NCBI GenBank assembly: GCA_034421255.1
Contig: DAOUKN010000314.1
Span: 1-37,477, forward strand
From: Chloroflexota bacterium
Lineage (GTDB): Bacteria; Chloroflexota; UBA11872
Direction of reading: 5' to 3'
Length of the DNA stretch: 37,477 bases
Part shown: positions 8,509 to 25,381 of the stretch, piece by piece
Layout: each line of letters opens with the position of its first letter
Position numbering within the stretch: the stretch's first letter is position 1
The notes under the pieces: generated by a model
Told to the model about the DNA's origin: nothing
The model's database searches: none
The model's input: the letters and a program-made list of their open reading frames with translations, nothing else
Program-made: the position numbers and the translations under genes

Positions 8509-9539
8509 GTGTCGACAGGCCGCAGGGTGTGCTTCGCCGGGGCTGGTCGGCGGAGGTCGGTGACTACGCCATCGCCGGGGGCTGGACCCGGCGCGGTGAG
8601 GCACTGGTGGTCGGGGATGCCGCGGGTGGCGTCTACGCATTCGACGGCACGTCTGGCGCGACCATTTGGACGCAGCGCGAAGTCCATGAAGGCGGGGTGC
8701 TCGCGGTGGCGATGCACCCAAACCGCCCCGAGTTCGCGACGGCCGGCCAGGACGGCCGAGTCTTGGTCTGGAGCGCCGCCGACGGTCGGGTCAGGGAGGC
8801 TTTCGACGTCGGAAACGGTTGGGTGGAGCACGTGGCGTGGTCGCCGGACGGCACGTGGTTGGCAGCCTCCTGCTCCCGGCAGGTTCACACGTATGGGCCG
8901 GATGGAGAGAAAACCTGGCAATCTGACGATCATCCCAGCACCGTCAGCGCGATCGCGTGGTCCAGCACCGGGGATCTGGCGACGGCCTGTTATGGGCGCG
9001 TGACGTTCTTCGACGCGTCCACCGGGGAGGTCCGCCAGCAGCTGGAGTGGATGGGCTCCCTGGTGTCGCTGGTCCTAAGCCCGGACGGGGATATCGTGGC
9101 CTGCGGCAGCCAGGACAACTCGGTGCACTTCTGGCGTCGATCCACGGAGCAGGACTCGATGATGTCGGGGTATCCGGCGAAGCCGTCGGCCCTGGCCTTC
9201 GATGACAGCGGCACCCTGTTGGCCACCGGCGGAGGCGAGGAAGTGACGGTCTGGAGCTTTCAGGGCAGTGGTCCCGAAGGCACGCGGCCCGGCGTTCTGG
9301 AGCTTCATGTTCAACCCATCACGACGCTTGCCTTCGCACCCGGTGTGACGCAGCTGGCCTCGGGGGCACGCGATGGCACCGTGGCTGTGTGGTCGCTGCA
9401 GAAAGATGCCAAAGGCCGCCCGATAGGGGCTGCGGTTGTGGCGGACGCAGTGGCCGACTTGTACTGGCGACCGGATGGACGCGCGCTTGCGGCGCTCGAC
9501 GCTCAGGGTGGCGTGACGGCCTGGCGGATCGGACGATAG
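8505..9539 (+). CDS. WD40 / beta-propeller repeat protein
   Basis: About seven repeats ending in VW/FW/AW dipeptides, for example [25 protein letters not shown] and [13 protein letters not shown]. The start is uncertain: TTG at 8505 overlaps the upstream stop, or GTG at 8529. The ORF-track start at 8277 lies inside the preceding gene. Confidence 0.85.
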
Positions 9540-9994: not shown

Positions 9995-10940
9995 TCAGGG
10001 CTCGCAGGTCGCCCCGTTCTTGTCCGGCACGCCGTCCAGCCACTCCTGGAACTCGTCGTTGGCCGGGGCGCACAGGCCCGTGTCGTCGAAGTGCAGGTAC
10101 TGCATCGCGCTGTTGATCAGGCCCTGCGGCAACTGTCCGCTCAGCCCCGTGCGGGAGACCGCCAGCCGCTTCAGGCCGGACATATTGCCGATCCCGGCGG
10201 GCAAAGGCCCGCTCAACCCGGAGTCTTCGTGCAGCGACAGGCGGTTGAGGCCGCTCAGGTTGTCCAGGCTCGTCGGCAGCGTCCCGCTCACATGATCCCG
10301 GGCTAAGCTGATGATGCCCAGGTTGGACAGGCCGCCCAGCTCCGACGGTATGGCCCCGGTGAGCTGGTTGCGGTTCATGGCCAGCCGGGTCAGGTTCGAC
10401 AGGTTGCCCAACTCGGCGGGTATCGCGGACCCACCGATGCTATTGCGGTCCAGCGACAGAACCTCCAGGTGCGCCATCTTGCCCAGTGCGGCGGGCAGGG
10501 AGCCGCTCAGGTTGTTGTCCCAGAGCGCCAGGTCGGTGACCTGTCCCTGTCCGTTGGTGGTCACGCCGTGACACTCGTGCAGTGGCTTGTCGCTCAGCCA
10601 GTTGGCGTTGCTGGACCAGCTGTCGCCGCCCGTGGCCTGGTAGAAGTCCCGGAGGACCTCCCGGTTGCCGTCGTCGTCGATTAAGCCGACGGATACGGAG
10701 GACGCCGTCACGCCATTGTAGTTGCCGCCGCTGATCAAGTGGGTGATGGTGGCCCGCTCGTTCGCTTGGTCGTCGTCCTCGCCGGCGCTGACGGGTACCG
10801 TCTGCGCCGTCAGCCAGTTGTCGGGTGTGAAGGTGAGGCTGGCCGGATGTCGCTCCTAGATCGTCTGCCCGGAGGCTGAGGTGGCTATCGCTCAACGTCA
10901 CGCTCCCGGCCGTGTCGTCACCGCTGACCAGGATTGTCAA
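9995..10940 (-). pseudogene. Leucine-rich-repeat surface protein, 5'-truncated and frameshifted
   Basis: The C-terminal 247 aa carry about seven 24-aa LRRs of the L..L..L.L..N.L.G.IP type. The upstream frame stays open without a start (ASLTFTPDNWLTAQTVPVSAGEDDDQANERATITH, a Calx-beta/cadherin-like repeat signature). The sequence continues in another frame (TILVSGDDTAGSVTLSDSHLSL) after a shift near 10850-10860. It ends at the GC break near 10.94 kb. Confidence 0.7.
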
Positions 10941-11132
10941 AGTCCACCATCACCCGACAGCCGGATATCTGTCCGAAAGCATCAAAATCACGTAAAATGC
11001 GCCCGACAAACGCTGTCAGCCACGACTGGTGAGAAGAGACTCATCAACACCGTGATCTTCTCTCCAGTTAATGCCTGCAAATGGAGCTTTCGATTGCAAT
11101 TGCCTGAAGAGCTGTAAGCGGGATGTTGTCCA

Positions 11133-13004
11133 ATGACGCAGAATGAGCGCGAAACACGAACCATCCAACTCGAGAGTTGGGAAGTCGGTGGTGAGCTGCT
11201 AGACGTCTTATCTCGCGGCTTGTATTCAGATGCGAAAGACACGCTAAGAGAATACGTACAGAACGGCGTCGACGCTGGAGCCAAGCACATCCTGATAACC
11301 GTGGACGGGCCCCAGGTAGTTGTCAGAGACGACGGGACCGGAATGGATGACGAAGGCATTCGAGCTGCTCGCAGATTTGGAATGTCCGACAAGAGTCCCC
11401 AAGAAATGGTGGGATACCGTGGAATCGGAATCTATTCTGCCTTTGGCATATGCGAAGAGATGTCGATCACAAGTCGCCGAGAAGGAATGTCACACTTAGT
11501 GGGTTGGAGATTTAAGTTTGGTGAAATGCGGCGTTTGCTTGAGAGCGACAAAGCATCTGATGTCAGGCAAGGAATTGGATTGCCAGATCTATTGCGCGAG
11601 TATACAGAACTATTCACCGAGCCCTACTACGGAAATGTTGATGACCACTTCACCGTCGTCGAGCTTGACGGCATTGATGACGAGTACCGCGCGCAATTGA
11701 ATGACGCCGCAGAGGTAAACAGCTACCTGCTGCGTACGATTCCCGTTGCATTTGAGTCAGAGGGCTATGGAATCGCAGTCAATGAATGGGTCGCAGAGCA
11801 TGTTGGACTGAATCCTGTTCGGATCTCGCTACGGATTGCAGACGACACTGAGTTTGACGTTTTGCCGCCAGTGGCTACAGATGTCTATAGGGCAGAAACA
11901 GACTGGATCAAGGCCCCGGATGGTACAACCCTAGCGTTTGTATGGTACGCCCTTTCCACAAATGGTCGACAGCTTCCTTCGTATGATGGATCGTCAGTGA
12001 GTGGATTCTTACTGAAGATCAGGGGATTCACACTTGGCAATAGGGATTTGCTTAAGCCGCTTTGGCCCGCCGTTGGCGGGCGCACCCTGTATCATCACTA
12101 CACAGGCGAAGTCCACATATTGGGAACTGCGCAACTGTTTCCCAATGCAGCCCGAGATGACCTGGAATCGAGTCCGGCCAAGCAGCAATTTTCGAAATTG
12201 GCATCGGACTTCTTCTATCCTCTGAGCCGTAAGGCACGAACAATGCAAGCCCAAGCTCGCGCTGTCCGTCTTTTGGGTGGCATCGATGCGACGATCGCGC
12301 GGTTCAATGCACTAAGAGATGCACCTGATTCGAATGCGTTCGAACTATACCGGGAGAGTGAAGATTACCGAACTGGCCTAGAAAACGTATATCAGGAGAT
12401 TCGCAGGCACATGAGGAAGCCTCGGGGGCGACCACGCACGCAATTCGACAGTGTCCAGAAGGCTTCGCTAGACGACGTACTTCAGCAGCTACAACAGTCG
12501 ATAAGGCAACTGGGAGGAGTGGTAAAGGGTGCCCAGCGTAGGACTCAGAAGACTGGTGCCCACGGTAACCAACGCTCGACGCAACTGCCGCCGCAAGCTC
12601 TTCTACTAAACAAAGCTCTTGAGGCAACCGTCGCAATGTCGGAGAAGTCAGCGGATATTCGATACAGAGAGGCCGTGGCAGCCTTGAGGCCATTGGTCCG
12701 CATGAGGGCGATTGCACGCGCAGTAGGCGTCCTCGACAACCTCAAGGCCTCGGGTACAGAACTTGGAACAGACCTAGAAGCGTCCAGAAGGGAACTGAGA
12801 TCAGCCATTGGGTGGTCTCCGCTGGCACCAGTCTCACTGGAGGAGGCCCTTGGACAACAGGGAGTATCTCTGGAAGACGATGAGGAAAAACTGATTAGAG
12901 CAGTTGACCGTGGACTAATCGCAGGACTAGGAGGACGAGGAGATGCATATGAAGCAGTCTTGCGGGCCATCGCCGATTCGTTAGCTGAGGAACGGGGGAG
13001 CTAG
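11133..13004 (+). CDS. GHKL-superfamily ATPase (HATPase_c_3 / MORC-MutL-like), paralogue 1
   Basis: 623 aa. Bergerat-fold motifs: N-box REYVQNGVDAG, G1 VRDDGTGM, G2 GYRGIGIYSAFG. The C-terminal half is alignable with the 18039-19640 protein (GEVHIL....PNAARDDLE against GELHIV....PNARRDYFE). Confidence 0.8.
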   Translation: MTQNERETRTIQLESWEVGGELLDVLSRGLYSDAKDTLREYVQNGVDAGAKHILITVDGPQVVVRDDGTGMDDEGIRAARRFGMSDKSPQEMVGYRGIGIYSAFGICEEMSITSRREGMSHLVGWRFKFGEMRRLLESDKASDVRQGIGLPDLLREYTELFTEPYYGNVDDHFTVVELDGIDDEYRAQLNDAAEVNSYLLRTIPVAFESEGYGIAVNEWVAEHVGLNPVRISLRIADDTEFDVLPPVATDVYRAETDWIKAPDGTTLAFVWYALSTNGRQLPSYDGSSVSGFLLKIRGFTLGNRDLLKPLWPAVGGRTLYHHYTGEVHILGTAQLFPNAARDDLESSPAKQQFSKLASDFFYPLSRKARTMQAQARAVRLLGGIDATIARFNALRDAPDSNAFELYRESEDYRTGLENVYQEIRRHMRKPRGRPRTQFDSVQKASLDDVLQQLQQSIRQLGGVVKGAQRRTQKTGAHGNQRSTQLPPQALLLNKALEATVAMSEKSADIRYREAVAALRPLVRMRAIARAVGVLDNLKASGTELGTDLEASRRELRSAIGWSPLAPVSLEEALGQQGVSLEDDEEKLIRAVDRGLIAGLGGRGDAYEAVLRAIADSLAEERGS

Positions 13005-13012
13005 AGGCCGTA

Positions 13013-14011
13013 ATGGCGCCAAGGGGCCGACGGCGGCGGCCAGGTTTTCAATCAAGCCAAGACAAAGACCTAGTTCGAGAAAAGTATGATCTCCCGTTAG
13101 TTGAAGCAGTCGCTCGTCGGAAGGCCGGCCCAATTCGGTACTTTGGACTACCTGGAGTTCAGGCGCTGGATCTACGGAGTTGGGGGCATCTCTGCGAGTA
13201 TGTGGCTGCCGTTGAGGTTTTTCCCGATCAGTTTCAACAGTTGAAACATCAATTGAGGACTCAGTTCGGCACCCTGGACCATCGGGCCCATTTGGGTGAT
13301 GTCGATGAGGTCATTCTGAGAAACGGAGGTCGTAATTCACAATGGACGTTCGTGTCGACGACGTTCCGCGAAGACGTCGGCTTCATATGGGATTTCGATG
13401 TCGTTTATTTGGACTACTATGGGAAGTTCCTTCCGTACAATAGAGGCGGTCCCGGAGTGCAGAAAAGAGCACGTGCCTTGCGACACCTATTCGCTTCGGA
13501 CCGACAGAACGCATGGCAGCCATGGCTCCTTATCCTTACAGTCGAGTCTCGGCTCTTCGGACCGCAAGACAGAAGCCAGATGCGTCAATTCCTAACAGTG
13601 TCCAAGGAACAAGCCGACGAGGAGACAGGAACCATAATCGACTACCTCTTGTCTGAAGCTGGAACCGCGACTGACCAGGCAGCAAGATTGGTACATGGTA
13701 CCCTCAGCTACATCATTGCCCTGGCAGCGAGCAATTCTGATGTGAGCATCTCACCCAGACCTACTGTCCTGTACCGCGGCGGGAACAACACACCCATGCT
13801 TCATTTCGCCTATGAAATGAGCCCTTCAGATCTGTTGTCCGGCTATAGTTCGGTTCTACCGCTGCTAAGGTCTCCCTTTCTACGCGTACGCCACGATTAT
13901 GCCGAGCCATGGTTTCAGTTGTTGCCTTCTCAACCACCCGGACAGACAGAGTCTGATCTACGGGCAACGTTGGATTTCCTGGACGACCGACAAATCAAGC
14001 AAATCGTATAG
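13013..14011 (+). CDS. Hypothetical protein, weak Rossmann/methyltransferase-like pattern
   Basis: 332 aa, starting 9 nt after the GHKL-1 stop. The pattern YFGLPG ... AAVE ... GDVDE ... FDVVYLDYYG ... LLILTVE is reminiscent of SAM-MTase strand order, but no canonical DPPY/NPPY or PC motif is present. Confidence 0.55.
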   Translation: MAPRGRRRRPGFQSSQDKDLVREKYDLPLVEAVARRKAGPIRYFGLPGVQALDLRSWGHLCEYVAAVEVFPDQFQQLKHQLRTQFGTLDHRAHLGDVDEVILRNGGRNSQWTFVSTTFREDVGFIWDFDVVYLDYYGKFLPYNRGGPGVQKRARALRHLFASDRQNAWQPWLLILTVESRLFGPQDRSQMRQFLTVSKEQADEETGTIIDYLLSEAGTATDQAARLVHGTLSYIIALAASNSDVSISPRPTVLYRGGNNTPMLHFAYEMSPSDLLSGYSSVLPLLRSPFLRVRHDYAEPWFQLLPSQPPGQTESDLRATLDFLDDRQIKQIV

Positions 14012-14037
14012 GGTCCTTCCCAAGCGATCAGCACAAT

Positions 14038-15045
14038 TCACCCTCTACTCTGCCTCTCGATACGCTTAACTGCTTCTCGAATTTTACGAAGCTCGAAGAG
14101 GCACTTCTTGCGTTGCTCTACATCCATGTCTTTCATATCAGGAATCAGATCCCTATCTAGAAGTCCCTTGCGAAATCTCTTGAAGCGGTTAAGCCACATG
14201 TTGTCGACGCCACGATCCCTAGCGCTTTCGAATGCTCGTTCAAACGTCCCTTCCCCGGACATCAGGATCTTGATTGGCTGAGGGCCTGCTTTGGCAACAT
14301 CAAGAACCTTGACCAGTTTATCCCTGACGTCTCTTGCCGTTTCAATTTCGTTGCTCTTGATCTTCTTGACAACCACGTCATCCAAACCCGGGTTCCTCTG
14401 GCGAGCCTTCTTTACAGCGTTTGACTTTAAGTACTCGTCGTAATAGCTCCATCTATTTACATCGTTCTCGTCGTGATCAACCATGAATTGGTACGTGCTC
14501 ACAAGGTGATTCACGAGTCGACTTGAAAGACCCATTTCTTCAGACATAGTTTGAACACTGACGCCGTGCATGGCATTGCGGCGATATAGGTAACCTGCTT
14601 GCTCGAACGGTGCCCAGTCCTTCCGTCCGATGATGTGGTACTCGCCGAGCAGTGCAAATACAAGCTTCTCGCTTATGTCCGCGGGCAGCAGCCGCACTTT
14701 GGCTTTGCCCCACCGCACAGCATCTAATCTAGCAAGTTCACGATATGCAGCGAGTCTGCTGTTCCCCTCAAGTACTACAAGGTCACCACTCCTCACCAAC
14801 ATGGGGTCCGTAAGGCCACCGTTTGCCCTTATTGATTGGATGAGTTGTTTGACGTGATCCATTCTGTTCAGCCGCTTGTGAATCTCTTCTTGAGACGGCA
14901 CATCATGCTGCCTCTGTATGAACGAGTAAATCCTCGGGTTATCGGAATAGAAACTCAGATCAAGGACAGGAAGGTACCCGCTTTTGACCGGCACCTCCTG
15001 ACCTCCAAGTGTGAGGGAGTCGTCGACCCACGCGTAATCGGTCAT
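14038..15045 (-). CDS. ParB/Sulfiredoxin-domain protein, paralogue 1
   Basis: ATG at 15045 with GGGAGG 8 nt upstream (the ORF track gives TTG at 15048). ParB N-terminal box DPMLVRSGDLVVLEGNSRLAAY, then WAPFEQAGYLY. Last gene of the minus-strand operon. Confidence 0.75.
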   Translation of the reverse strand: MTDYAWVDDSLTLGGQEVPVKSGYLPVLDLSFYSDNPRIYSFIQRQHDVPSQEEIHKRLNRMDHVKQLIQSIRANGGLTDPMLVRSGDLVVLEGNSRLAAYRELARLDAVRWGKAKVRLLPADISEKLVFALLGEYHIIGRKDWAPFEQAGYLYRRNAMHGVSVQTMSEEMGLSSRLVNHLVSTYQFMVDHDENDVNRWSYYDEYLKSNAVKKARQRNPGLDDVVVKKIKSNEIETARDVRDKLVKVLDVAKAGPQPIKILMSGEGTFERAFESARDRGVDNMWLNRFKRFRKGLLDRDLIPDMKDMDVEQRKKCLFELRKIREAVKRIERQSRG

Positions 15046-15066
15046 CAAATGTGCCTCCCAACTGGC

Positions 15067-16536
15067 CTATGCATTCAATATGGCCCGCAGAATTCCCCCA
15101 AATTCATAGGACATCTCCTTCCGATAGGCCTCCCTGTCGATATCTCCCTGTGCGAACTGTGCTGCTACGCGTTTCGAGTGAAGCAACGCTTCAATCCACT
15201 CGTCAATTGAGTCGCGCATAATCAGGTTATGGACGTGGCATACCCTATCCTGGGATATCCGATGGACCCTGTCCTGAGCCTGCAGATAGTCGTCCAAACT
15301 GAACATCCGGTCGTAGAAGACAACGTGGTTCGCCACGGTCAGAGTCAGGCCTTCCTTTGCCGAGCCTGGTGTGGCAATGAACACCTTGGCACTTGGCTCA
15401 TCAAGAAAGGTCCGAATTGCATCGGACTGCTCCCTTGTGCTCAGCATGCCGTGGACCTGCTGCGGGCTGTGCTGGCGCAGAACTTTCGCCAGCCACTGGA
15501 CGTTCTCTACGAAGGACGTCCAGACAATACACTTCTCACCACCCTTGACTATCGAAGAGACCACCTCCAGCAGAGTCTCAAGCTTCCCGGGCTCAACCTG
15601 GTAGCTCGGATCAACCAAGGTGGGATTCGACGTGAGCTGTACGAGCCGGAGTAGGCGCTTCAACACCACGTCCGACTCGTCGGCCACGAGCTTTCCGTCC
15701 CGGAAGATGATAGCTCGGAGAGACTCCCTTACTTGTCGGTAAATCTCTCGCTGCCTCGGTTCCCATTCGGTCACCACAGAATGCACGACTTTCTCAGGCA
15801 AGCTTATCTTGGCACTTGCCTTAGTCTCCCTCACGGCAAAACCCGAGATTGAGTGAAATATGCGCTGCAGCTGAGTCTCTAGAGCCTTCTGCCGGCTATT
15901 GGCCCCGGCTAGGTCGGCTGACAGGTTCACTGAGCGCTTGAATTCTCCGAAATCGTCTCCAAGCGATGCACCGGAGTCGAGGAATTTGATCTGCGACCAG
16001 ATGTCGTGTGGGCGATTCGACACCGGGGTTCCGGACATTATCACTCGCCTAGTGAACATTGGCGCGAGACCGAGGAACACGCGGGTAAGAGCAGCGTCGG
16101 GGTTCTTGATCTTGGTGGACTCGTCGAGTATCACTCCGACATTCCTAGTCTTTAGAAACAAGTGCATTCGTTCCTCTTCGGCTCTCACGGCCTCATAGTG
16201 AGCGAGCATGACCCGAGCGGGACTGTTGAAAACATAGAAGTTTCCACTACGGCTCGTGGTCAGGACTCGAGGAACGAGTTGAGAGTGAGAAGCGAGTTCG
16301 TTCTGCCAGTTGTTGAGAAGTCCCTTCTTGACAACGATCAATGCTGTGTCCAATAACCGGTGCGACAGCCAGTAGACTATTAGGTCTATTGCAACCTTTG
16401 TCTTGCCCAACCCCTGCTCATGAAATATGGCAGCGTACTCAAGATCCTTGACGGCATCAACAGCCTCCAACTGGTATGCGAACGCCTGGTGTTTCAGGGT
16501 TAGGTCTGGCTCCCTCTTTAGTGTCAGCTTCTGCAT
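15067..16536 (-). CDS. SNF2-family helicase/translocase
   Basis: 489 aa. Motif I EQGLGKTKVAI, motif II VILDESTKIKN. C-lobe EGLTLTVANHVVFYD and motif VI QAQDRVHRISQDR. The start overlaps the upstream nuclease gene by 13 nt. Confidence 0.9.
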   Translation of the reverse strand: MQKLTLKREPDLTLKHQAFAYQLEAVDAVKDLEYAAIFHEQGLGKTKVAIDLIVYWLSHRLLDTALIVVKKGLLNNWQNELASHSQLVPRVLTTSRSGNFYVFNSPARVMLAHYEAVRAEEERMHLFLKTRNVGVILDESTKIKNPDAALTRVFLGLAPMFTRRVIMSGTPVSNRPHDIWSQIKFLDSGASLGDDFGEFKRSVNLSADLAGANSRQKALETQLQRIFHSISGFAVRETKASAKISLPEKVVHSVVTEWEPRQREIYRQVRESLRAIIFRDGKLVADESDVVLKRLLRLVQLTSNPTLVDPSYQVEPGKLETLLEVVSSIVKGGEKCIVWTSFVENVQWLAKVLRQHSPQQVHGMLSTREQSDAIRTFLDEPSAKVFIATPGSAKEGLTLTVANHVVFYDRMFSLDDYLQAQDRVHRISQDRVCHVHNLIMRDSIDEWIEALLHSKRVAAQFAQGDIDREAYRKEMSYEFGGILRAILNA

Positions 16537-16979
16537 TGATCCGACCTACGTGAAGATTTTGTTGCATTCAGCCGATTCATTTCGGACAGAACGACGGTTT
16601 CAAATTGAGGCAATCCGACTCCGGCTCGAAAGTTTGCGAGTAATTTCCCCGCGAGTCGCTCAATGGGCCAGGGCACTGCCAGTATGAAGACAGAGCCGTC
16701 CGCCATCCCACATCTTCTTAGGAATGCTGTGACTTGAGCCTCCGTGTGCGAGTTCTCCAGGTCCGCCATACTCTTGGCTTCTCCAATGACCACTCGTCCC
16801 TGTTCGTCGAGCATGATATAGGCATCAGGTACGTACCCTTCGATGGGAGGTGGGCGATGCGTCGATTGACTCCCTACGGAGTCGGTAAGGACACGTTCTC
16901 CCCGACCTTCACAGAATCTCTCCGAGATATATCTGTGGAGTATGGCAACCAAGTTCGCGTGTTCCATTGATTCAGGCAT
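16524..16979 (-). CDS. PD-(D/E)xK restriction-endonuclease-fold protein
   Basis: 151 aa. GYVPDAYIMLDEQGRVVIGEAKS gives the PD...E-A-K catalytic pattern. Overlaps both neighbours: 8 nt with ParB-2 and 13 nt with SNF2. Confidence 0.65.
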   Translation of the reverse strand: MPESMEHANLVAILHRYISERFCEGRGERVLTDSVGSQSTHRPPPIEGYVPDAYIMLDEQGRVVIGEAKSMADLENSHTEAQVTAFLRRCGMADGSVFILAVPWPIERLAGKLLANFRAGVGLPQFETVVLSEMNRLNATKSSRRSDQCRS

Positions 16980-18000
16980 TGGTGGTGGACGGCGAGGCGA
17001 TGAGCCTACAGAGTTCAGCCAACTGATCCCTGGCGTCGGTTAGAGCGAGATTCTCAGGAGTATTGAGGTCTTCGCGAAGGCGAAGCAAGTCAGCGTAAGC
17101 CATCTTGGCTATTCGATTCGATAACGCGTCGGTCAATTGGACCAATGTGGCGTCCTCCAAGGCCTCAACCGTCGAGGGGCTGTCCAGCACTTTTTCGGCC
17201 TCACGCGCTCCGTGTGTAAGAAACACACGCTGGGCCTGTGGATTGCCGAGGATCGCGGGGAGTTTTCTGACACGGTCACTCGGATACAGAATCTGATCTT
17301 TAACCCACCCGGCGAAGTCTTTCTTCGTGTAGCCTGAGGTTACGAGAGCTTCCTGCACTCTTGGGGCTTGCATTTCAAGAAAGGCGCTGAACCGCGTCGG
17401 ATCAAACTGATCGTCACTTGCGAGAAGAGTTCGGTAATGGTCCTCCATGTCGTTGTAGGCGTCGATGAATCGGTGCACCTCGGTCCTCTGCCCGCCGCAG
17501 AAATCGATAATCTGATCCGTTGTCAGGTGCTCCGAGTTGCTGAGATAGTCGAGGTACTTGGCCTTGGAGTAAGGGTCCCACTGCCTCGGACCAACTAGGT
17601 GAGCTTGGAGCCGAATGGCATCAATTTCCTTTTTGTCAAGCCGGTCGTAGACGATCGCTGGGATTTCGTCCCATCTACCACTATCATCGTCCCGTCTGAA
17701 CTGGCGGTAGATCAGGGCACGGGTATTCCCCTCGATGACAACTAGCCTATTCACGGTTTCTCGGTTGACCAGAATGGGATGGATTAGCCCGCCATGCGTC
17801 CTGATCGACGCCCTTAAGCTCTGAAAGGTGGTCGTACTCTCTCCTTGCTCGTAGTTGGCAGCTCCAAGTGCAAGACTCATCTGTTCATTGGTTACGTCTC
17901 CACCATACATCTCAATGTAGCGCGCCACCCGTGGATTGGACGCATCGAGCACAAGCGTCTCGACCGGAAGTGCCTCAAATTGACCGTTGCCTGCAGCCAT
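16972..18000 (-). CDS. ParB/Sulfiredoxin-domain protein, paralogue 2
   Basis: ATG at 18000 with GAGGAGG 6 nt upstream (the ORF track gives 18018). ParB box HPILVNRETVNRLVVIEGNTRALIY, then WDPYSKAKYLDY. Collinear with the 14038-15045 protein. Confidence 0.75.
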   Translation of the reverse strand: MAAGNGQFEALPVETLVLDASNPRVARYIEMYGGDVTNEQMSLALGAANYEQGESTTTFQSLRASIRTHGGLIHPILVNRETVNRLVVIEGNTRALIYRQFRRDDDSGRWDEIPAIVYDRLDKKEIDAIRLQAHLVGPRQWDPYSKAKYLDYLSNSEHLTTDQIIDFCGGQRTEVHRFIDAYNDMEDHYRTLLASDDQFDPTRFSAFLEMQAPRVQEALVTSGYTKKDFAGWVKDQILYPSDRVRKLPAILGNPQAQRVFLTHGAREAEKVLDSPSTVEALEDATLVQLTDALSNRIAKMAYADLLRLREDLNTPENLALTDARDQLAELCRLIASPSTTNA

Positions 18001-18038
18001 GCTGTACCTCCTCAGCAAACATCAGCCGAACGGGGACC

Positions 18039-19640
18039 CTAGCTCGGCATCGGTGCGCCAGTGTCATCAAGTGTCAGCCGGGCCTGAGAATCATTCACAG
18101 CCCCTTGGTCGGGATCTTCGGCTGAACCATCTCGCCCCACCCTGGAGGCTTCTGCGAACACGATCTCAATCAGTTCTCTCGCGGATCCCGGTGAGGGCGC
18201 GAGAGTCGCTAATGCCCCAAATAGTTTTCTGTACACAACAGCCTCTGCGTGAGGCACGTCGCCGAACTGCTGCGGATCGGTCCCGACTGAAAAGTTGTTC
18301 AGCTTGTCTTCCGCACTATCTAGCCTCTCAAGAGTGCCATTGTCGAGTTTTCTTTTACCGACGCTGTTGCGAATCTCCTCCACTTCCCGCAATGCTTGCC
18401 GAACCAAACCGGTCGAGTCCCTTGAGGTGAGATAGCCGGACGTCGCTAGGGCATAGAGGTCCTCGACATTGCTCAGTGCAGCGAGCATCTTCCTAGCACG
18501 GTTGCGAGCCGTGGACTCCCGCCTGCACCGCGTGACGATGCTGCGCAGAATAGGTATCAAATGGTTCTCGAGGTTACGCAGATGGGGTCCGAGTTCAAAG
18601 TAGTCACGCCTGGCGTTGGGAATGATTCGTGAGTCCACGATGTGCAGTTCGCCCACACACCATCGGTTGAAGCGTTCCTCTGAAAAAAGGTGGTCGAACA
18701 CTGCTTCGCTACCAATCTGAATATTCCCCACCCTGGCCCTGATGCCACGCACTCGCTGGTTTTTTGGGATCGCGCTCAGGTAAGATGAATGTGCGACCCA
18801 GCCAATGGCCGCATCACCAGTGTCGTCGACGCTAGGTATGCGGACTGCCTGAAACTCAGTATATTCGGCATTCCTATTTGCCGAGAGTTGGATTGATTTC
18901 CCGTATGGTCTCTTTACCGGGCCAGGATCTCCTTTCAACAGTACTTCAAATGTGAGCGGTGCTTCAGCGTGATGGAACAGCCCTTCGACACTGTCGGCAA
19001 AGGGGAAGTTTGAGCGCATGGGAACCGGGCACGCTTCGCTCACATAGTCGCGCACCGCGTCGCGATTGAGCAGCAATCCCGTGGAGTGACGCGCCACGTC
19101 TCCAACTTCGACCTCAAAGAAGTGCTCAGGATGATCCGGCCCTGGCAGGGACTCCACGTCGACGCAGCCAAGAATGGCATCTTCAAGCTTTAACTTCGAG
19201 GAAGTCAGCTGCGGAAGCCGGTCGCTATGCCATGTGATTCGGGTTACAACCTCAGCCTCGTGGGCGCGTGTGGTGAATGAAACCGTCTTCGCGAAGGCGA
19301 GGCCGGCGAGCCTTCCGACGCCACGGAATCCCCTGTCTATTCCCAGTGTCTTGTCACTTCGTCCAATGGGCAAGAGCCGCTCAAGCGCATCTTCGGGAGA
19401 CAGGCCCGGACCGTTATCTCGAATCCTGATCCGGCGTTCAGCGACATCGATCGTGATTTCTACCCTCGCTCTTCGGGATAGCCCACTCGTCGCGGCAGCA
19501 TCGGCCGCATTTTGTATGTACTCCCTGTACATGGACAGCGGGTCGTGGTACATCCCGGTTGTCACAAGGCCGAGAAGGCCTGCACCCGAGAGCATAGACG
19601 TTTTCTGAGCGTCGAGCGGATTAGTGATGTCCGTAATCAA
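18039..19640 (-). CDS. GHKL-superfamily ATPase (HATPase_c_3 / MORC-MutL-like), paralogue 2
   Basis: 533 aa. N-box REYIQNAADAA, G1 IRDNGPGL, G2 GFRGVGRLAGLAF. The TTG start overlaps the radical SAM stop (TTGA), so the two are probably translationally coupled. Confidence 0.8.
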   Translation of the reverse strand: MITDITNPLDAQKTSMLSGAGLLGLVTTGMYHDPLSMYREYIQNAADAAATSGLSRRARVEITIDVAERRIRIRDNGPGLSPEDALERLLPIGRSDKTLGIDRGFRGVGRLAGLAFAKTVSFTTRAHEAEVVTRITWHSDRLPQLTSSKLKLEDAILGCVDVESLPGPDHPEHFFEVEVGDVARHSTGLLLNRDAVRDYVSEACPVPMRSNFPFADSVEGLFHHAEAPLTFEVLLKGDPGPVKRPYGKSIQLSANRNAEYTEFQAVRIPSVDDTGDAAIGWVAHSSYLSAIPKNQRVRGIRARVGNIQIGSEAVFDHLFSEERFNRWCVGELHIVDSRIIPNARRDYFELGPHLRNLENHLIPILRSIVTRCRRESTARNRARKMLAALSNVEDLYALATSGYLTSRDSTGLVRQALREVEEIRNSVGKRKLDNGTLERLDSAEDKLNNFSVGTDPQQFGDVPHAEAVVYRKLFGALATLAPSPGSARELIEIVFAEASRVGRDGSAEDPDQGAVNDSQARLTLDDTGAPMPS

Positions 19641-21262
19641 ATCAGTTGCGTGCCCTTGATCGCGACTGCTTCGTCATGGTCGAATAGGCCGGCATCTTCA
19701 ACGATTTCGTCTTCCTCAAGGTAAGTTCCGTACCCGGCCATTTCCTTGATGAGCTGACGACCGTTCGTCTTCGCGTCGTCCTTAGTATCCAACCCGTGGA
19801 ATGCCATCAACTGTCGGATTTTTCGGTCGACTGTTTGGTCGTTCGCCAACTCCCGAAAATGCCTTGGCCCCATTCCATTCCCGTTGGACGGATTAGCCAG
19901 TAGACGCACCAACTCCCTCTCCTGGGAATCTGAAAGGCGCTGGCGAAGCGAGTCATACTCCTCTCTCTGGGCTCTCCCCTCTCCCTCTTCAAAGTACTCT
20001 CGGTGGAATATGAAGGCATGCGGCTGCCTGAGCAGCCTCTCGAATTCTTCAGCATTGTCGCCATAGGCTCTTAGGAAAAAGGGTGGGCTTCCACTGACAA
20101 CCCCCTTGGTTGCCTGGAGCATGAGTTGGAACGAACGGAGGTAATACCGGTTCCACCTTTTGCCCACGTGTGACCGGTCCTTCAAAGTCACAGGCTGGTA
20201 CCGCATCGGGAAAGACCAAATACGGATCCCCAACTCCTCATTTAGATCGATATTGAGACGCATTCGCAGGTAGAGGTCTGTTGGAGTGTCCATGAAGTTG
20301 TACAGCATGTAATTGGACAAAGAGGTAATCTGATTGTCTGCGGCCATGCGAATCGACCGCTCGTAGACCTTTCGGACGCCGATATGGTCGAAGGCGATTC
20401 GAAGGGGGCTGATGCAGATCGTCGACATCTCGCGTAGGAACATTTCCGACTTGGCGAGGATTCGTGCGTCCACTCCCTGGTTGAAGTCCACTCGGCGCTT
20501 GACTGGCCTGTTGCTACCGCGTATCAGCTTGGCTCCCGGCGTGAAGCCCAGGTCGCGTATCTCCGCAATCACCTCTTTGTAGCGAGCCGATGCGGTGATG
20601 TTGTTGTCCATGAGCACGAGGTCCTTCTTCTCCCCGTGTCGCTTGATAACGCCTTCAACTAGATTGACAAGTGGTGGCATCTCGCGTTGGGCGCCCTCCA
20701 ACTTCGGCACTCCGCAGAATGAGCACTTCCTCACGCATCCACGCGACGCGTATCCGAAATACGCATCATGCACTGGGTAGCTGTAATTGATGTGTTCGAG
20801 GATCCCATAGTCGGGAACTAGTTCCTCGATCGGTGTACCGAACAAGTCGTCGGCTCCGAAGTCATAGTCGTCAGCCGACAACGCGAGGGAAGCTGCCGGA
20901 GGACCGTCGAGTATACCTTTGACGAAGCGTACGCCAGCCCAGCGAGATTCATTGAGGAATGCATCGAGCATGAGCGAGACTGCAATTCCGCCAACAAACA
21001 CATTTTCCGGTTGACCGCCTGCAGCCCGTATGGCGAAGTCAATTGCCGAAGCAGTGCGACTCCACTCAAAGGTGAAGAGAGTGGTCACATAGACTCGGTC
21101 CCATGCTTGATTCAGCACCTCATGGTCTTCACCCTTTATGAACTTGACGCGGTCGCCTCGGCCGGATCTTCCGTGATAGGCGGCAAGTTTCATCAAACCC
21201 AATGGCGGATATTTGTTCGGGTAGTTGGGTTCAATTAGCAGGACCTCCTTGGATGGCATCAT
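19637..21262 (-). CDS. Radical SAM enzyme with B12-binding-like N-terminal domain
   Basis: The CxxxCxxC cluster CVRKCSFC is encoded at 20714-20737, which I verified by hand translation. The N-terminal LIEPNYPNKYPPLGLMKLAAY resembles the B12-binding-domain rSAM class. ATG at 21262 is preceded by GAGGGG (the ORF track gives TTG at 21265). Confidence 0.8.
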   Translation of the reverse strand: MMPSKEVLLIEPNYPNKYPPLGLMKLAAYHGRSGRGDRVKFIKGEDHEVLNQAWDRVYVTTLFTFEWSRTASAIDFAIRAAGGQPENVFVGGIAVSLMLDAFLNESRWAGVRFVKGILDGPPAASLALSADDYDFGADDLFGTPIEELVPDYGILEHINYSYPVHDAYFGYASRGCVRKCSFCGVPKLEGAQREMPPLVNLVEGVIKRHGEKKDLVLMDNNITASARYKEVIAEIRDLGFTPGAKLIRGSNRPVKRRVDFNQGVDARILAKSEMFLREMSTICISPLRIAFDHIGVRKVYERSIRMAADNQITSLSNYMLYNFMDTPTDLYLRMRLNIDLNEELGIRIWSFPMRYQPVTLKDRSHVGKRWNRYYLRSFQLMLQATKGVVSGSPPFFLRAYGDNAEEFERLLRQPHAFIFHREYFEEGEGRAQREEYDSLRQRLSDSQERELVRLLANPSNGNGMGPRHFRELANDQTVDRKIRQLMAFHGLDTKDDAKTNGRQLIKEMAGYGTYLEEDEIVEDAGLFDHDEAVAIKGTQLI

Positions 21263-21354
21263 CAACCCCTCAAACTGACCTTTTGAGCGTCCAAAACTGT
21301 GCCGCGAAACTGGTCTAACACTCTACGCTGCCTTTCTGAGAGAGATGCTTGATA

Positions 21355-21543
21355 TCATGGATTATTTTCCTGTTTCGCTCGTGGTTTGGATTGCCCGTCA
21401 AACGCGCTCTCGTCAAGATGATCCCGAATTAACCGAGCTATCAATGTACTTTTCTTGAAGCCCCTCTCTTGGCAGTAGGCGTCGAATCGGTCAAACTCCT
21501 CAGAGTCTAGGAGAACGCTGATTTTCGCACGTCTACGGTTCAT
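21355..21543 (-). CDS. Ribbon-helix-helix (CopG/MetJ-like) DNA-binding protein
   Basis: 62 aa. The N-terminal beta-strand pattern KISVLLDSEEFDRFDAYCQERGFKKSTLIARLIRDHL is typical of RHH proteins. GGAGAAAGG RBS. First gene of the minus-strand operon. Confidence 0.7.
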   Translation of the reverse strand: MNRRRAKISVLLDSEEFDRFDAYCQERGFKKSTLIARLIRDHLDESAFDGQSKPRAKQENNP

Positions 21544-21563
21544 GCCTACACCTTTCTCCGTTG

Positions 21564-21592
21564 CTTATAGCTCACTTCTACTCATAAGTCAA
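21564..21592 (-). promoter_or_regulatory. Sigma70-type promoter for the island operon
   Basis: On the minus strand: TTGACT (21592-21587), a 17-nt spacer, then TATAAG (21569-21564). This lies about 20 nt upstream of the RHH start codon. Confidence 0.55.
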
Positions 21593-21970
21593 CACATTTG
21601 CTCATATGTGCGCATCAGCTGTCGATGACCGCTGACATCTGTGAGAGGCGCGACAGATCGGGTAAGACCGGGTCCACAGACATCGTGATGGAGGGGCTTT
21701 CCCGTGGGAGACTTCAAGTGACCGCTACACGTCTATGAGGATGGGCAGCCAACAGGCCCGGGACATGGAGTCAACGGGCAAGCGGGGTTCTTGCTGGTGG
21801 TCGGGAGGCGGGTCGCGATGGACTTCGAGGAGGCCCGTGCAGACTTTATCCTCGGTATCCGCACCCAGGTCATACTCCTTTTCCACACGAGGATAGATTG
21901 GCCTTGGCCTCCCAGGCCTGCCACAACTGCGCAGCTCTGCTTGACTGCATCGCGTCCCTGTCTCCTCCGG

Positions 21971-22342
21971 CTATGCTCTGGCCTCTATAACGACGTGGCC
22001 CCCGCTCTCGACTTCGATGTTCAAGTTGTGCCTGTCGAGCAGCAGCATACCCACCAGTGGTGTGCTGCCGGTCGCGTCGGCCTTAATATGTCTCGGCTGG
22101 CCGTCCCAGAGCACAGTCACGTCGTGGACATCGAAGCTCACAACGTCGTCGTTTGCCAGAAACGCCCAGCCCATGTGCGAAAACGACAACCCCAAGTCAG
22201 CAACCACGGCGGTCGGCAACGTCAAGGTGCCGGTGTAGCCAGTGTCGATAACGGCCTGGATGTCCCGCGTCCGTCCATCTGGGCCCTGTAAGGGAAGGGT
22301 CACCACCGCTTCATAGGCAGCATTCACGGCCCCTTCAATCAT
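21971..22342 (-). CDS. Retropepsin-like (clan AA) aspartyl protease
   Basis: 123 aa with the active-site signature VIDTGYTGTLTLP (D-T-G) and a C-terminal GMLLLD flap-like segment. Overlaps the upstream partner gene by 4 nt. Confidence 0.75.
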   Translation of the reverse strand: MIEGAVNAAYEAVVTLPLQGPDGRTRDIQAVIDTGYTGTLTLPTAVVADLGLSFSHMGWAFLANDDVVSFDVHDVTVLWDGQPRHIKADATGSTPLVGMLLLDRHNLNIEVESGGHVVIEARA

Positions 22343-22629
22343 CCCCTCCTCCGCAGGGACCCGGCTCCGAAGCTGCGAATCGCCCGGTACCCGACTCGCT
22401 CCACCAAGACATCGACGGCACCGGGGCGCTGCGCTCTCAGACGATCCACCACGCCACTCTCACTGTCGGCTATGGCCCAATCCCCGGTCTCAACATCAAT
22501 GGCGACGTAATCTCCGCGATGGCCGGCTTCGACCTGCGGCAGGATGTCTCGCTCGTATATCTCTCTGCCGAGGCTGGCCGCCTCTTCGCGGGGCCTGCGC
22601 TGTCGCGCCGGGGTATCTGCGGTGGTCAT
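22339..22629 (-). CDS. Small hypothetical protein paired with the aspartyl protease
   Basis: 96 aa, translationally coupled to the protease (ATGA overlap). Contains GDYVAIDVETGDWAIADSE. No family assigned. Confidence 0.6.
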   Translation of the reverse strand: MTTADTPARQRRPREEAASLGREIYERDILPQVEAGHRGDYVAIDVETGDWAIADSESGVVDRLRAQRPGAVDVLVERVGYRAIRSFGAGSLRRRG

Positions 22630-25202: not shown

Positions 25203-25381
25203 GTCGAGTCTCCTTCCGTGCGATGGGGCCTGAGGACGACGCCGGGACCCGGGACGCGCCACGCCCCCGGCGGGGACGTGTCAGCGCGGCGGGTTCCCTG
25301 GACACGTCCCCAGGCGGTGGTTGAACGGGCAAGGCCCGCCGGTGGCGGGGCCTTGTGGATGCGGCGGTGCGTGGCCGCCGT

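Follow-up and report, generated by a model that had tools for sequence, protein, structure and literature searches.

Gene Content and Mobility of the Island

Do nine neighboring genes of a Chloroflexota bacterium, whose domains recall several antiphage systems without adding up to any of them, form one system, and what might it do? The window analyzed here (37,477 nucleotides, contig DAOUKN010000314.1 of assembly GCA_034421255.1) holds all nine genes listed in a preliminary description: A and B on the plus strand and, convergent to them, the operon of C to I on the minus strand. The low-GC island and sharp composition break reported there are also present, with a GC content of 0.50-0.57 at about 10.9-21.7 kb vs 0.65-0.75 in both flanks. 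Three of the gene spacings given earlier are exact overlaps of -4 (H/G), -8 (F/E), and -13 (E/D) nt; the other two, +38 and +21, are obtained with internal ATG starts for F (18000) and C (15045), while the longest ORFs give gaps of 20 and 18 nt instead.

The edges of the island were set by homology. Positions 10960..21777 (no strand assigned) align at 90.5% DNA identity over 10,833 bp with a locus from a Chloroflexota MAG (L006) whose flanks are unrelated. System GC is below flank GC in 80/80 related loci (mean difference -0.084), related copies are carried by conjugative plasmids, and IS-disrupted copies occur among the related loci. Together, these observations identify the island as a real, horizontally spread, mobile gene system. 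The island is not marked by a tRNA gene, an Rfam match, or direct repeats at its flanks. Upstream of the RHH gene I and within the island lies a conserved noncoding leader/promoter region (21544..21777, no strand assigned) that aligns with L006 and L007 at the identity typical of the island; it has no Rfam match and no convincing sigma-70 consensus. Cultured carriers include Rhizobium leguminosarum WSM1325, whose operon spans RLEG_RS34150-34120, and Novosphingobium pNL1, with the operon at SARO_RS17510-17535; a relative of the rSAM neighbors HerA-NurA in a prophage. The carriers also include elements bearing ERF, RadC, and DUF932 genes, and genes of type III R-M, CBASS-like, or NACHT kind adjoin some related loci.

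As the preliminary description had stated, the island matches no named system, here within the libraries and literature searched. Neither PADLOC-DB v2.0.0 (2023) nor NCBIfam 20.0 (2026) holds a system-level model that covers it, these libraries and Pfam return domain-level matches only, and a full-text literature search found no description of such a system. Nothing in these sources pairs a radical-SAM (rSAM) enzyme with a GHKL ATPase. TGT, PAPS reductase, PglZ, and cysteine desulfurase, earlier said to be missing, have no matches in the island by PADLOC or NCBIfam; the accompanying claim that there is no canonical methyltransferase survives only in part, given the methyltransferase fold of B described below.

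The rSAM-GHKL Core

The signature gene of the system is H (19637..21265, minus strand), which encodes an rSAM enzyme of 542 aa. Its Radical_SAM match is weak (8.6e-4), and C177/C181/C184 of the CxxxCxxC motif are invariant among homologues, which conserve no second cysteine triad. The predicted architecture comprises an N-terminal Rossmann/B12-binding-like domain, the rSAM barrel, a helical C-domain, and a tail of acidic character in which a VEDAxL motif is invariant; G526 is conserved in at least 90% of homologues. The best fold matches of the AF2 model (pLDDT 86) are MiaB/RimO, followed by the B12-dependent rSAM enzymes OxsB/CysS/TokK, all of them remote (TM 0.4-0.48, 12-14% identity). At the sequence level, H weakly matches RimO, BchE, HpnJ, and B12-rSAM models; it has no PADLOC match whatever, and no curated family covers it. 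Homologues in 80 MAG loci are 64-94% identical, and the wider family comprises 6,907 close clusters and 1,674 clusters at 50% identity.

The adjoining gene G (18039..19640, minus strand) encodes an Hsp90/HtpG-like GHKL ATPase of 533 aa (HATPase_c_3, 3.8e-11; HtpG N-domain, 4.6e-12) with invariant Bergerat motifs (E40/N44/D47, D75xGxG, G104xRGxG). The C-terminal two-thirds of G, and of its paralogue A, are without known relative. Synteny in other genomes had been set beforehand as a test of the proposed unit, and rSAM is followed by GHKL in 78/79 related loci from >10 phyla; this sample, gathered by scanning genomes for peptide patterns of the window's rSAM, is biased to close relatives. Among 72,556 plasmids, H and G match the identical 12 records. 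G is thus an obligate partner of H, translationally coupled to it via the 4-nt overlap. No orphan rSAM-GHKL pair was seen among the related loci, the sole exceptions being the IS-disrupted copies. Catalytic motifs are intact in H and G as well as in D and E.

Exchangeable Modules around the Core

Four genes of the minus-strand operon form a block, F-E-D-C. F (16972..18018, or from the possible start at 18000; minus strand, 348 aa) is a ParB/Srx-fold protein (ParB_N, 7.7e-4; PADLOC PDC-M38A, 6e-10) with weak profile matches to Noc/ParB structures and invariant NPR and EGNTR motifs. Its paralogue C (14038..15048, minus strand, 336 aa; 29% identity over 205 aa, E 1e-16) is a second such protein (parB_part, 1.1e-3; PDC-M38A, 2e-8), with invariant NPR and EGNSR. 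No ParA or parS-type partition context adjoins the ParB-like genes here. E (16524..16979, minus strand, 151 aa) has no sequence match in Pfam, PADLOC, or the PDB, so its assignment as a small PD-(D/E)xK (restriction-endonuclease-fold) nuclease is motif-based; 29 homologues, with identity down to 23%, all keep H7, P51-D52, E67-x-K69, and Q82. D (15067..16536, minus strand, 489 aa) is a minimal SNF2 translocase (SNF2-rel_dom, 8.7e-27; Helicase_C, 2.2e-14) with GLGKT, DEST, and QAQDRVHRISQ motifs. In PADLOC it scores best against ZorD (7e-46) and DpdE (7e-36), in each case over the helicase half, and its NCBIfam matches all fall far under their cut-offs.

On the plus strand, A (11133..13004, 623 aa) is a second GHKL ATPase (HATPase_c_3, 1.8e-14) that shares 25% identity with G across about 390 aa (E 4e-12) and is always accompanied by B in the loci examined. 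B (13013..14011, plus strand, 332 aa) had been left unassigned. AF2 fold prediction (pLDDT 89) and Foldseek indicate a Trm1-like class I SAM-methyltransferase fold, with the tRNA m2,2G methyltransferase Trm1 ranking first (E 1.8e-7) ahead of hundreds of SAM methyltransferases. The modeled fold is accompanied by G-x-G, acidic, and D-Y-F-G motifs, in which G45/P47/G48 and E68 are invariant and D134, in 'LDYFG', is at least 90% conserved. B is distant from the NCBIfam family PP_RS20740 (35.5 bits, cut-off 200). The ninth gene, I (21355..21543, minus strand), encodes a ribbon-helix-helix protein of 62 aa (RHH_9, 3.7e-4) and is probably a local regulator; only L006, L007, and L037 (3/79 related loci), all close relatives, have homologues.

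The F-E-D-C block accompanies the rSAM-GHKL pair in 52/79 loci, upstream in 37, downstream in 13, and inverted in 2. The order F-E-D-C-H-G is kept at 44% rSAM identity (L087) and on the Rhizobium plasmid pR132505; in this alternative order, the stop of C overlaps the start of the rSAM gene. F occurs in just 7 plasmid records, all among the 12 that are rSAM-positive. Other loci place different modules beside the core: 11 carry a NurA-like gene with a 565-aa protein and a second GHKL, 6 carry a DndB-HEPN fusion, and still others have the A-B pair or a GHKL with a PIN-like protein. In plasmid versions, a DpdB-like DGQHR protein (PADLOC, 1.5e-17; NCBIfam, 2.7e-17) immediately precedes the rSAM. 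Median identity falls from H (67%) through D (49%), G (46%), F (37%), and E (33%) to C (28%). The proposed nine-gene unit is therefore a conserved system with no fixed set of nine genes: the invariant core is rSAM plus GHKL, F-E-D-C and A-B are exchangeable modules, and the RHH gene is local. The survey of co-occurrence called for at the outset likewise yields strict rSAM-GHKL linkage and, in a crude sample of 118 flanking ORFs, no clear defense-gene enrichment. Housekeeping genes make up most of the closest flanking ORFs, and integrases or IS genes only a few, so the sample does not demonstrate enrichment in defense islands.

Relationship to Known Systems

One close parallel is Dpd, the 7-deazaguanine DNA modification/restriction system (DpdA-C plus DpdD-K), in which DpdB is a ParB-like ATPase aiding base insertion (PMC12839542). 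Like the island, Dpd is a mobile genomic island with a multigene writer-plus-restriction layout (PMC12839542). Both combine a modification-type enzyme with a ParB-family (DGQHR/DpdB-like) NTPase and a SNF2-type helicase, D scoring against DpdE as given above. The island differs in lacking TGT (DpdA), DpdC, and preQ0 synthesis genes; its candidate writer is a large B12-domain-type rSAM enzyme with a GHKL ATPase, and F and C fall short of DpdB models. DndB is a DGQHR ParB-family protein, and Dnd/Ssp phosphorothioation likewise associates such a protein with an operon of DNA-modification type whose restriction modules are separable, while a DndB domain fused to HEPN is an alternative partner of the rSAM-GHKL core. 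DndA/C/D/E, SspA-D, PAPS reductase, and cysteine desulfurase are, however, absent from the island.

ZorD of Zorya is a SNF2 helicase fused to an Mrr-like nuclease, and E and D, which overlap by 13 nt, resemble a split ZorD: D aligns to positions 440-879 of the 908 in the PADLOC profile (7e-46). The NCBIfam ZorD score is 81.9 bits vs a cut-off of 1500, the nuclease is a separate 151-aa protein, and ZorA/B/C are absent. MutL-MutH-UvrD, MORC/paraMORC, BbrUII/HgiDII, and MzaB also join a GHKL ATPase to a partner enzyme, such as a nuclease or helicase, and a role as an ATP-driven clamp or matchmaker is plausible in common. The island GHKLs match MutL, HtpG, BbrUII, and MzaB models at the domain level, with scores far under the family cut-offs (BbrUII 48.6 vs 550; MzaB 19.9 vs 850).

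H shares with MiaB/RimO and the cobalamin-dependent (class B) rSAM enzymes OxsB, TokK, and CysS an N-terminal Rossmann/flavodoxin-like domain followed by the rSAM barrel. It has neither an N-terminal three-cysteine auxiliary cluster nor a TRAM domain, and its helical C-domain and acidic tail are its own. To our knowledge, the prokaryotic viperins (pVips) are the only established rSAM antiviral family. H shares with them the enzyme class and a putative antiviral context; it has no match to PADLOC pVip models, its size and domain architecture differ, and its system is obligately multigene, with ATPase, ParB, and nuclease partners.

Proposed Function and Alternatives

We tentatively favor, at somewhat less than even confidence, a mobile conflict system in which nucleic acid is modified by the rSAM-GHKL core, with a ParB/DpdB-like partner, and restriction falls to the helicase-nuclease modules. 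Modification of nucleic acid is suggested by the fold of H, which is nearest to the nucleic-acid-modifying MiaB/RimO and to B12-dependent rSAM methylases. The conservation gradient, highest in H and lowest in C, points to a writer set against effectors, and the DpdB-like DGQHR protein ahead of the plasmid rSAM provides a Dpd parallel for the writer. Whether the rSAM provides modification-based self/non-self discrimination is doubtful, though such a role is conceivable: modification genes of R-M-type systems are often found alone, and the absence of an orphan rSAM-GHKL pair counts against it.

That absence is what one would expect of a modification-independent sensor-effector system, possibly abortive, in which DNA carries no self-mark. 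The rSAM-GHKL pair would make or sense a small molecule, such as a viperin-like modified nucleotide or chain terminator, or would itself be a radical-based effector, and infection would activate the nuclease modules (REase-SNF2, HEPN, PIN, NurA-HerA). HEPN and PIN domains are usually RNases, so for some modules an abortive logic, of which such partners are typical, fits better than DNA restriction. The very high conservation of the rSAM would suit a universal small-molecule substrate, and GHKL/MORC-type ATPases serve as switches in other conflict systems. Yet H lacks similarity to pVip models and its fold is not viperin-like, the DpdB-like or ParB-like proteins translationally coupled to it point to DNA, and the methyltransferase-fold partner also suggests nucleic-acid marking. 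We consider this alternative unlikely.

Less likely again is a benefit to the mobile element rather than to host immunity. The rSAM could hypermodify the DNA of the element or its host to evade restriction, or the genes could be a DNA-repair/maintenance kit in which a MutL-like GHKL, a SNF2 motor, and a nuclease are joined by NurA-HerA for end resection and by an rSAM that, like spore photoproduct lyase, reverses lesions. This reading would be in keeping with carriage on conjugative plasmids, in a prophage, and on elements bearing ERF, RadC, and DUF932 genes, as well as with the frequent housekeeping flanks, strong purifying selection on the rSAM, and the repair roles known for all component families. 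Patchy spread by horizontal transfer, fast diversification, and the swapping of nuclease modules are instead traits of conflict systems, unlike repair pathways; HEPN, PIN partners, and DpdB-like proteins are not repair components, and the ParB-like proteins have no partition context.

The convergence of A-B with the operon in the window, its absence from most related loci (strict criterion 8/79, B-like genes in 11), and the lack of plasmid homologues of A-B might suggest two or three independent systems side by side with A-B unrelated to the operon, a very improbable arrangement that is largely refuted by the paralogy of A and G, by loci in which A-B is contiguous and co-directional with the operon (L001, L008, L016) or the only rSAM-GHKL partner (L014, L019, L031, L036, L038, L090), and by distant B homologues (25-27% identity) that, used as queries, again land beside rSAM-GHKL. 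These B-started look-ups tie A-B to the core, and the island is almost certainly a real integrated system, not a chance cluster.

Under the favored reading, the rSAM would draw on SAM and its [4Fe-4S] cluster to mark nucleic acid covalently, with a DNA base as the likeliest target. The ParB/DpdB-like NTPase and the GHKL ATPase may load or clamp it on DNA, much as DpdB aids DpdA. The split ZorD-like nuclease and SNF2 motor, flanked by the ParB-like proteins, would translocate on unmarked DNA and cut it, giving a writer/reader logic. The GHKL paralogues would act as MutL-like ATP-driven matchmakers, each linking one enzyme to DNA, be it the rSAM, the methyltransferase-fold protein, or a PIN/NurA nuclease. 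Of the earlier proposal of a multicomponent modification/restriction or abortive system, the existence of one conserved system is supported, and its domain content, modularity, and mobility suggest that it probably serves in conflict or defense against foreign DNA.

Limits and Surroundings of the Island

The island differs sharply from its surroundings in composition, with a GC content of 0.50–0.57 (∼10.9–21.7 kb) against 0.65–0.75 on either side, and window positions 10960–21777 align to a related locus from a Chloroflexota metagenome-assembled genome (MAG; L006), with 90.5% DNA identity over 10,833 bp and unrelated flanks. We set the edges of the island by this homology; tRNA genes, Rfam families, and flanking direct repeats give no marker, and none of these insertion-site signatures is found at the island. 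A scan for promoter and terminator consensus sequences returned fewer matches than shuffled sequence and was uninformative.

In the ORF listing, the plus strand carries A, a GHKL ATPase (11133–13004), and B, a 332-aa protein (13013–14011). The minus strand carries C (ParB-like, 14038–15048), D (SNF2, 15067–16536), E (151 aa, 16524–16979), F (ParB-like, 16972–18018), G (GHKL ATPase, 18039–19640), H (radical SAM, hereafter rSAM, 19637–21265), and I (RHH, 21355–21543). The composition break and the nine genes of the preliminary description were both reproduced by the GC profile and the ORF listing; its gene overlaps (4, 8, and 13 nt) agree to the nucleotide, its +38 and +21 gaps match internal ATG starts of F and C, and its domain calls agree with Pfam, PADLOC, and NCBIfam at the domain level only. 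The ∼240 nt of noncoding DNA 5′ of the RHH gene (window 21544–21777) has no Rfam match and is kept at island-level identity in L006 and a second related locus, L007; just past it, both loci contain 56 nt inserted relative to the window.

Genes for a CobW GTPase (7126–8508, plus strand), a WD40 beta-propeller protein (8277–9539, plus strand), and a leucine-rich-repeat protein (9995–10738, minus strand) lie upstream of the island. Just outside it on the other side, on the minus strand, are a 123-aa protein with a D-T-G motif that is possibly retropepsin-like (21971–22342) and a 96-aa protein whose gene overlaps it (22339–22629), neither of which has a Pfam match. An 811-aa ResIII/Helicase_C helicase (22827–25262, minus strand) adjoins the island on the right, and a DUF6094/N6-methylase-like methyltransferase (25702–26943, minus strand) is found just to the right as well. 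These last two suggest that another mobile module, R-M-like in content, travels close to the system; in one related locus (L054), DNA 77.9% identical to the helicase gene directly follows the rSAM-GHKL pair.

Conservation and Spread of the rSAM-GHKL Core

Relatives of H make up 6,907 protein clusters at E ≤ 1e-5, the best 120 of which are 82–92% identical, and in a library clustered at 50% identity H matches 1,674 clusters at E ≤ 0.001 and 266 at E ≤ 1e-30. The rSAM family is large and highly mobile, and it is without a curated model. A genome scan limited to one genome per species yielded 80 loci, all from MAGs, with rSAM identities of 64–94%; the hosts include Dehalococcoidia, other Chloroflexota, Binatia, Latescibacterota, Nitrospirales, Poribacteria, Gemmatimonadota, Acidobacteriota, Spirochaetia, Acidimicrobiia, and Alpha- and Gammaproteobacteria. 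Such identities across more than 10 phyla document intense gene exchange. Spongiihabitans and Poriferihabitaceae are among the taxon names of these MAGs, and sponge symbionts typically carry repeat proteins of eukaryotic type; from the names and the WD40 and LRR proteins in the flank of the window, we infer an association with sponge symbionts, the names suggesting that many of the carrier MAGs belong to such organisms.

We searched the related loci with the nine window proteins by tblastn, counting over 79 distinct loci. H is followed by G in 78 of the 79, the lone exception being an IS-truncated copy. The same linkage holds in a plasmid set (n = 72,556), where H matches 12 records, G matches the identical 12, and F matches 7, all among those 12. 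The F-E-D-C module (ParB/PD-ExK/SNF2/ParB) is present in 52 of the 79 loci: upstream in 37, downstream with the orientation seen in the window in 13, and downstream but inverted in 2. Where the module is upstream, the C gene ends in a stop codon that overlaps the start of the rSAM gene. A ParB-family protein is translationally coupled to the rSAM in most arrangements. The order F-E-D-C-H-G also occurs on the Rhizobium leguminosarum WSM1325 plasmid pR132505 and is kept at only 44% rSAM identity in L087, a small element with ERF, RadC, and DUF932. Median identities to the window in the group with the alternative order are 67% for H, 49% for D, 46% for G, 37% for F, 33% for E, and 28% for C. Homologues of the RHH protein were found only in L006, L007, and L037. 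We are almost certain that this is an integrated system and not a chance cluster.

The GC content of the system is below that of its flanks in 80/80 loci (L006–L085; mean difference −0.084), by more than 0.03 in 72 of the 80, across host GC contents of 0.45 to 0.72, and conjugation is predicted for 7 of the 12 plasmid carriers. IS elements interrupt some copies of the system: in L002–L005 and L017 the rSAM gene is intact and DUF4096/DDE transposase genes lie where the GHKL gene is expected, and in L096/L097 a DDE_3 transposase separates the two GHKL genes. Neighbors of the system at some loci include a type III R-M system with an integrase, and at others SMODS/CD-NTase and NACHT-type genes. 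When the closest large ORF to the left and right was surveyed crudely with Pfam (n = 118), mostly housekeeping families were returned, with no more than three integrases, two IstB, four DUF4143/AAA_14, and two DndB proteins; because the flanking ORFs are mostly housekeeping, we do not claim enrichment in defense islands.

Exchangeable Partner Modules

Loci that carry the rSAM-GHKL core without F-E-D-C have other partners. In 11 of them, a second GHKL occurs with two further proteins, one of 360 aa and weakly NurA-like, the other of 565 aa; in 6, the partner is a 772-aa fusion of a DndB domain with a Swt1-type HEPN. The 360-aa and 565-aa proteins have no PADLOC or NCBIfam match and, compared as possible equivalents of the PIN-like and DGQHR proteins of the plasmid versions, show no pairwise similarity to them. 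On pNL1 of Novosphingobium aromaticivorans the order is PIN-like, GHKL, DGQHR protein, rSAM, GHKL, and a convergent DGQHR-HEPN gene, and the Rhizobium plasmid has F-E-D-C and a DGQHR protein together with rSAM-GHKL and, in convergent orientation, a GHKL/PIN-like pair. The plasmid DGQHR proteins score as DpdB-like, with 1.5e-17 in PADLOC and 2.7e-17 in NCBIfam, the latter below cut-off (62.7 bits vs 300).

An A-like GHKL with a B-like protein is the partner in L014, L019, L031, L036, and L038, and also in L090 at 47% rSAM identity. Two remote homologues of B, sharing 27% and 25% identity with it, again lie in rSAM-GHKL-GHKL-B loci, whose rSAM proteins have 83% and 69% identity to that of the window, and we therefore assign the A-B pair to the system; B has no homologue in the plasmid collection. 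Within the island, A and G are paralogues (25% over ∼390 aa), as are C and F (29% over 205 aa).

Among more distant rSAM relatives, one in the prophage Marinitoga camini virus 1 lies next to HerA and NurA, and another lies beside a DUF87/HerA-like ATPase in an element that carries a serine recombinase. A 474-aa relative with 44% identity (L088) sits in a different putative defense context, with an alkaline-phosphatase-family (Phosphodiest) protein, a 1,480-aa DEAD/MZB helicase, 1,029-aa and 398-aa unknown proteins, a SEC-C protein, and a small methyltransferase. If our reading of the system is true, the combination of a single, extremely conserved enzyme with five or more alternative partner modules amounts to a natural experiment on the assembly of defense systems.

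The rSAM Enzyme

Across 38 close and 51 distant homologues, the CxxxCxxC motif of H (C177-x3-C181-x2-C184) shows no variation. The Pfam radical-SAM score is 19.9, below the gathering threshold of 29.5; with the motif present and the fold confirmed by AlphaFold2 and Foldseek, H is a member of the radical-SAM superfamily. C284 is invariant as well, in close relatives only, and no second cysteine triad is conserved across the wider family, which excludes an auxiliary cluster of the methylthiotransferase type. The model (pLDDT 86, pTM 0.85) comprises an N-terminal Rossmann-like domain, an rSAM barrel, an all-helical C-terminal domain, and a disordered acidic tail. Among solved structures it is closest to RNA-bound MiaB and to RimO, and then to the cobalamin-dependent OxsB, CysS, and TokK, all of these matches being remote (TM 0.4–0.48 at 12–14% identity), and the viral matches are likewise generic methylthiotransferase or B12-like rSAM enzymes. 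A sequence search of the PDB with the rSAM and E profiles gave at most marginal matches.

An assignment of H to the MiaB/RimO methylthiotransferases was rejected, as it lacks their N-terminal three-cysteine auxiliary cluster and its C-terminal domain is helical, not TRAM. Viperin (pVip, ∼300 aa) was rejected too, with zero PADLOC matches at E ≤ 0.01 and no viperin among the 50 fold matches listed. We examined a cobalamin-type architecture through the Rossmann-like N-terminal domain, the OxsB/TokK/CysS fold matches, and weak scores against B12-rSAM models; distant members of the family weakly match the class B models BchE, HpnJ, and MJ_0865. On the basis of the fold and these weak model matches, we assign H to the B12-binding-domain type of rSAM architecture, outside every curated family and with putative cofactor binding.

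The tail (window 19637–19780, residues 496–542) is predicted to be disordered (pLDDT below 50), and in it V522-E-D-A525 and L527 are invariant, G526 is at least 90% conserved, and F528 is not among the conserved positions. Acidic residues precede this motif, which resembles the acidic docking tip of the SSB type. The tail could bind a GHKL or ParB partner.

The Partner Proteins

Both A and G match Pfam HATPase_c_3 above cut-off, and Bergerat motifs I–III of G (ExxxNxxD, DxGxG, GxxGxG) are invariant (n = 27 homologues). The N-domain of G is Hsp90/HtpG-like (HtpG N-domain match, 4.6e-12), and its C-terminal two-thirds, for which no relative is known, carries conserved Arg/Asn/Trp motifs. D consists of an SNF2 core alone, in which the GLGKT, DEST, and QxxRxxRxxQ motifs are intact; in PADLOC it is closest to the helicase halves of ZorD and DpdE. 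E has no profile match in Pfam, PADLOC, or NCBIfam; when 29 homologues are aligned, the most distant at 23% identity, H7, P51-D52, E67-x-K69, and Q82 are invariant, a motif set that is a PD-ExK signature and makes E a putative nuclease. As candidate members of the ParB/Srx superfamily, C and F have invariant NPR and EGN(T/S)R boxes, Pfam and NCBIfam matches below cut-off, and weak profile matches to Noc/ParB structures.

The AlphaFold2 model of B (pLDDT 89) has a class I SAM-methyltransferase fold, and Foldseek returned 454 PDB matches at E ≤ 0.001, with the tRNA methyltransferase Trm1 first and other SAM methyltransferases after it. Neither the F-G-L-P-G loop (G45/P47/G48) nor E68 varies, and D134, conserved to at least 90%, stands in an L-D-Y-F-G sequence that resembles the D-P-F-G motif of Trm1. 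Judged by model and motifs, B is a class I SAM-methyltransferase fold with cofactor motifs and predicted activity, and not a canonical DNA methyltransferase. The earlier claim that the island has no methyltransferase is correct as to the canonical DNA type and only partly right overall, because of this fold and these motifs. Precomputed tables give PF28273 for relatives of B, "faint" where strength is stated; B itself was not placed in the PP_RS20740 family (NF047698/PF28273), as it scores 35.5 bits against a cut-off of 200 over residues 127–204 only.

Comparison with Known Systems

An assignment of the system to Dpd, Dnd, Zorya, BREX, DISARM, MZA, pVip, or MiaB was rejected because the defining components tested are absent. 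For Dpd, none of the nine proteins matches TGT or DpdA in Pfam, PADLOC, or NCBIfam; C and F of the window do not match the DpdB model, a DpdB-like DGQHR gene occurring only in the plasmid versions; and D scores 38.5 bits against the NCBIfam DpdE cut-off of 500, its PADLOC DpdE match (7e-36) covering the helicase core only. For Dnd/Ssp, there is no DndC/SspD PAPS-reductase-type enzyme, DndA/SspA cysteine desulfurase, or DndD/SspC ATPase. ZorD of Zorya is matched in its helicase half only (81.9 bits vs a cut-off of 1500), and ZorA/B/C are absent. D gives weak DrmD/BrxH helicase-core matches, and PglZ, DrmA, and DrmB, expected for BREX/DISARM, are missing. MzaB is matched at 19.9 bits against a cut-off of 850, in the N-terminal GHKL domain only.

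The nearest analogues are Dpd and Dnd, which pair a ParB-family partner of a DNA-modifying enzyme with a separate restriction module. ZorD, an SNF2 and nuclease effector, is a near analogue, D with its overlapping E resembling a split ZorD, as are the MutL/MORC-type GHKL ATPases of restriction systems. PADLOC-DB v2.0.0 holds nothing for the rSAM, and NCBIfam release 20.0 has no model for the rSAM, G, E, or the 565-aa partner. That no named system matches, as first proposed, is borne out by these two databases and the literature covered, which gave no system-level match. The full-text literature covered here, which includes few subscription-journal papers, does not describe the system, and a published name may exist there or in newer DefenseFinder models. 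Neither a 2024 Dnd paper nor a 2026 BREX paper covers it; its sole trace is the ParB-HEPN fusion Saro_3948 of pNL1, listed in the table of a 2013 HEPN survey (PMC3710099).

Proposed Mechanism and Alternatives

Catalytic motifs are intact in the rSAM, GHKL, SNF2, and nuclease proteins, and we consider it probable that the system has a role in conflict or defense, classing it as a multi-gene modification/restriction-type defense island. In the mechanism we propose, a ParB/DpdB-like NTPase and a GHKL ATPase would help the rSAM enzyme onto DNA, where it would write a covalent mark, and the ParB/nuclease/SNF2/ParB module, or one of the alternative nuclease modules, would attack unmarked nucleic acid. 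Help of this kind has a parallel in DpdB, which assists DpdA (PMC12839542). The GHKL paralogues suggest MutL-like matchmakers, because each recurs with one enzyme (rSAM, methyltransferase fold, PIN-like, or NurA-like).

That the rSAM writes a self-mark is possible, and we hold it with some doubt, as the absence of orphan rSAM-GHKL pairs and the presence of HEPN and PIN partners both speak against a writer/reader arrangement. HEPN and PIN domains are usually RNases. Such partners would suit an abortive design, in which the system is a modification-independent sensor-effector; we regard this as rather unlikely. A function for the element itself, for example in anti-restriction or repair, seems improbable. 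That independent systems are merely adjacent is very improbable, being largely refuted by the paralogy of A and G, the A-like and B-like pair of L090, and the return of the B-homologue loci to rSAM-GHKL. Culturable carriers include Rhizobium leguminosarum WSM1325, Novosphingobium aromaticivorans DSM 12444 (pNL1), Mesorhizobium, Bradyrhizobium, and Roseomonas mucosa, and the question is therefore accessible to direct testing.

Returning to the writer mechanism, its fullest version is one we offer only tentatively. The system would be the first of an immune type in which radical-SAM chemistry, possibly cobalamin-dependent, writes a new carbon-linked DNA mark and Hsp90-like GHKL matchmakers couple the writer and interchangeable nuclease modules to DNA, and it would be spreading horizontally via sponge-symbiont communities and onto alphaproteobacterial conjugative plasmids. 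If this is true, a new nucleic-acid modification is probably revealed, radical-SAM chemistry on DNA would be categorically new, and radical-SAM with GHKL would join methylation, phosphorothioation, and 7-deazaguanine on the short list of ways in which DNA is marked and policed. The reach of the finding exceeds the nine-gene cluster of the preliminary description, extending to a large unannotated family built around a radical-SAM and GHKL core.
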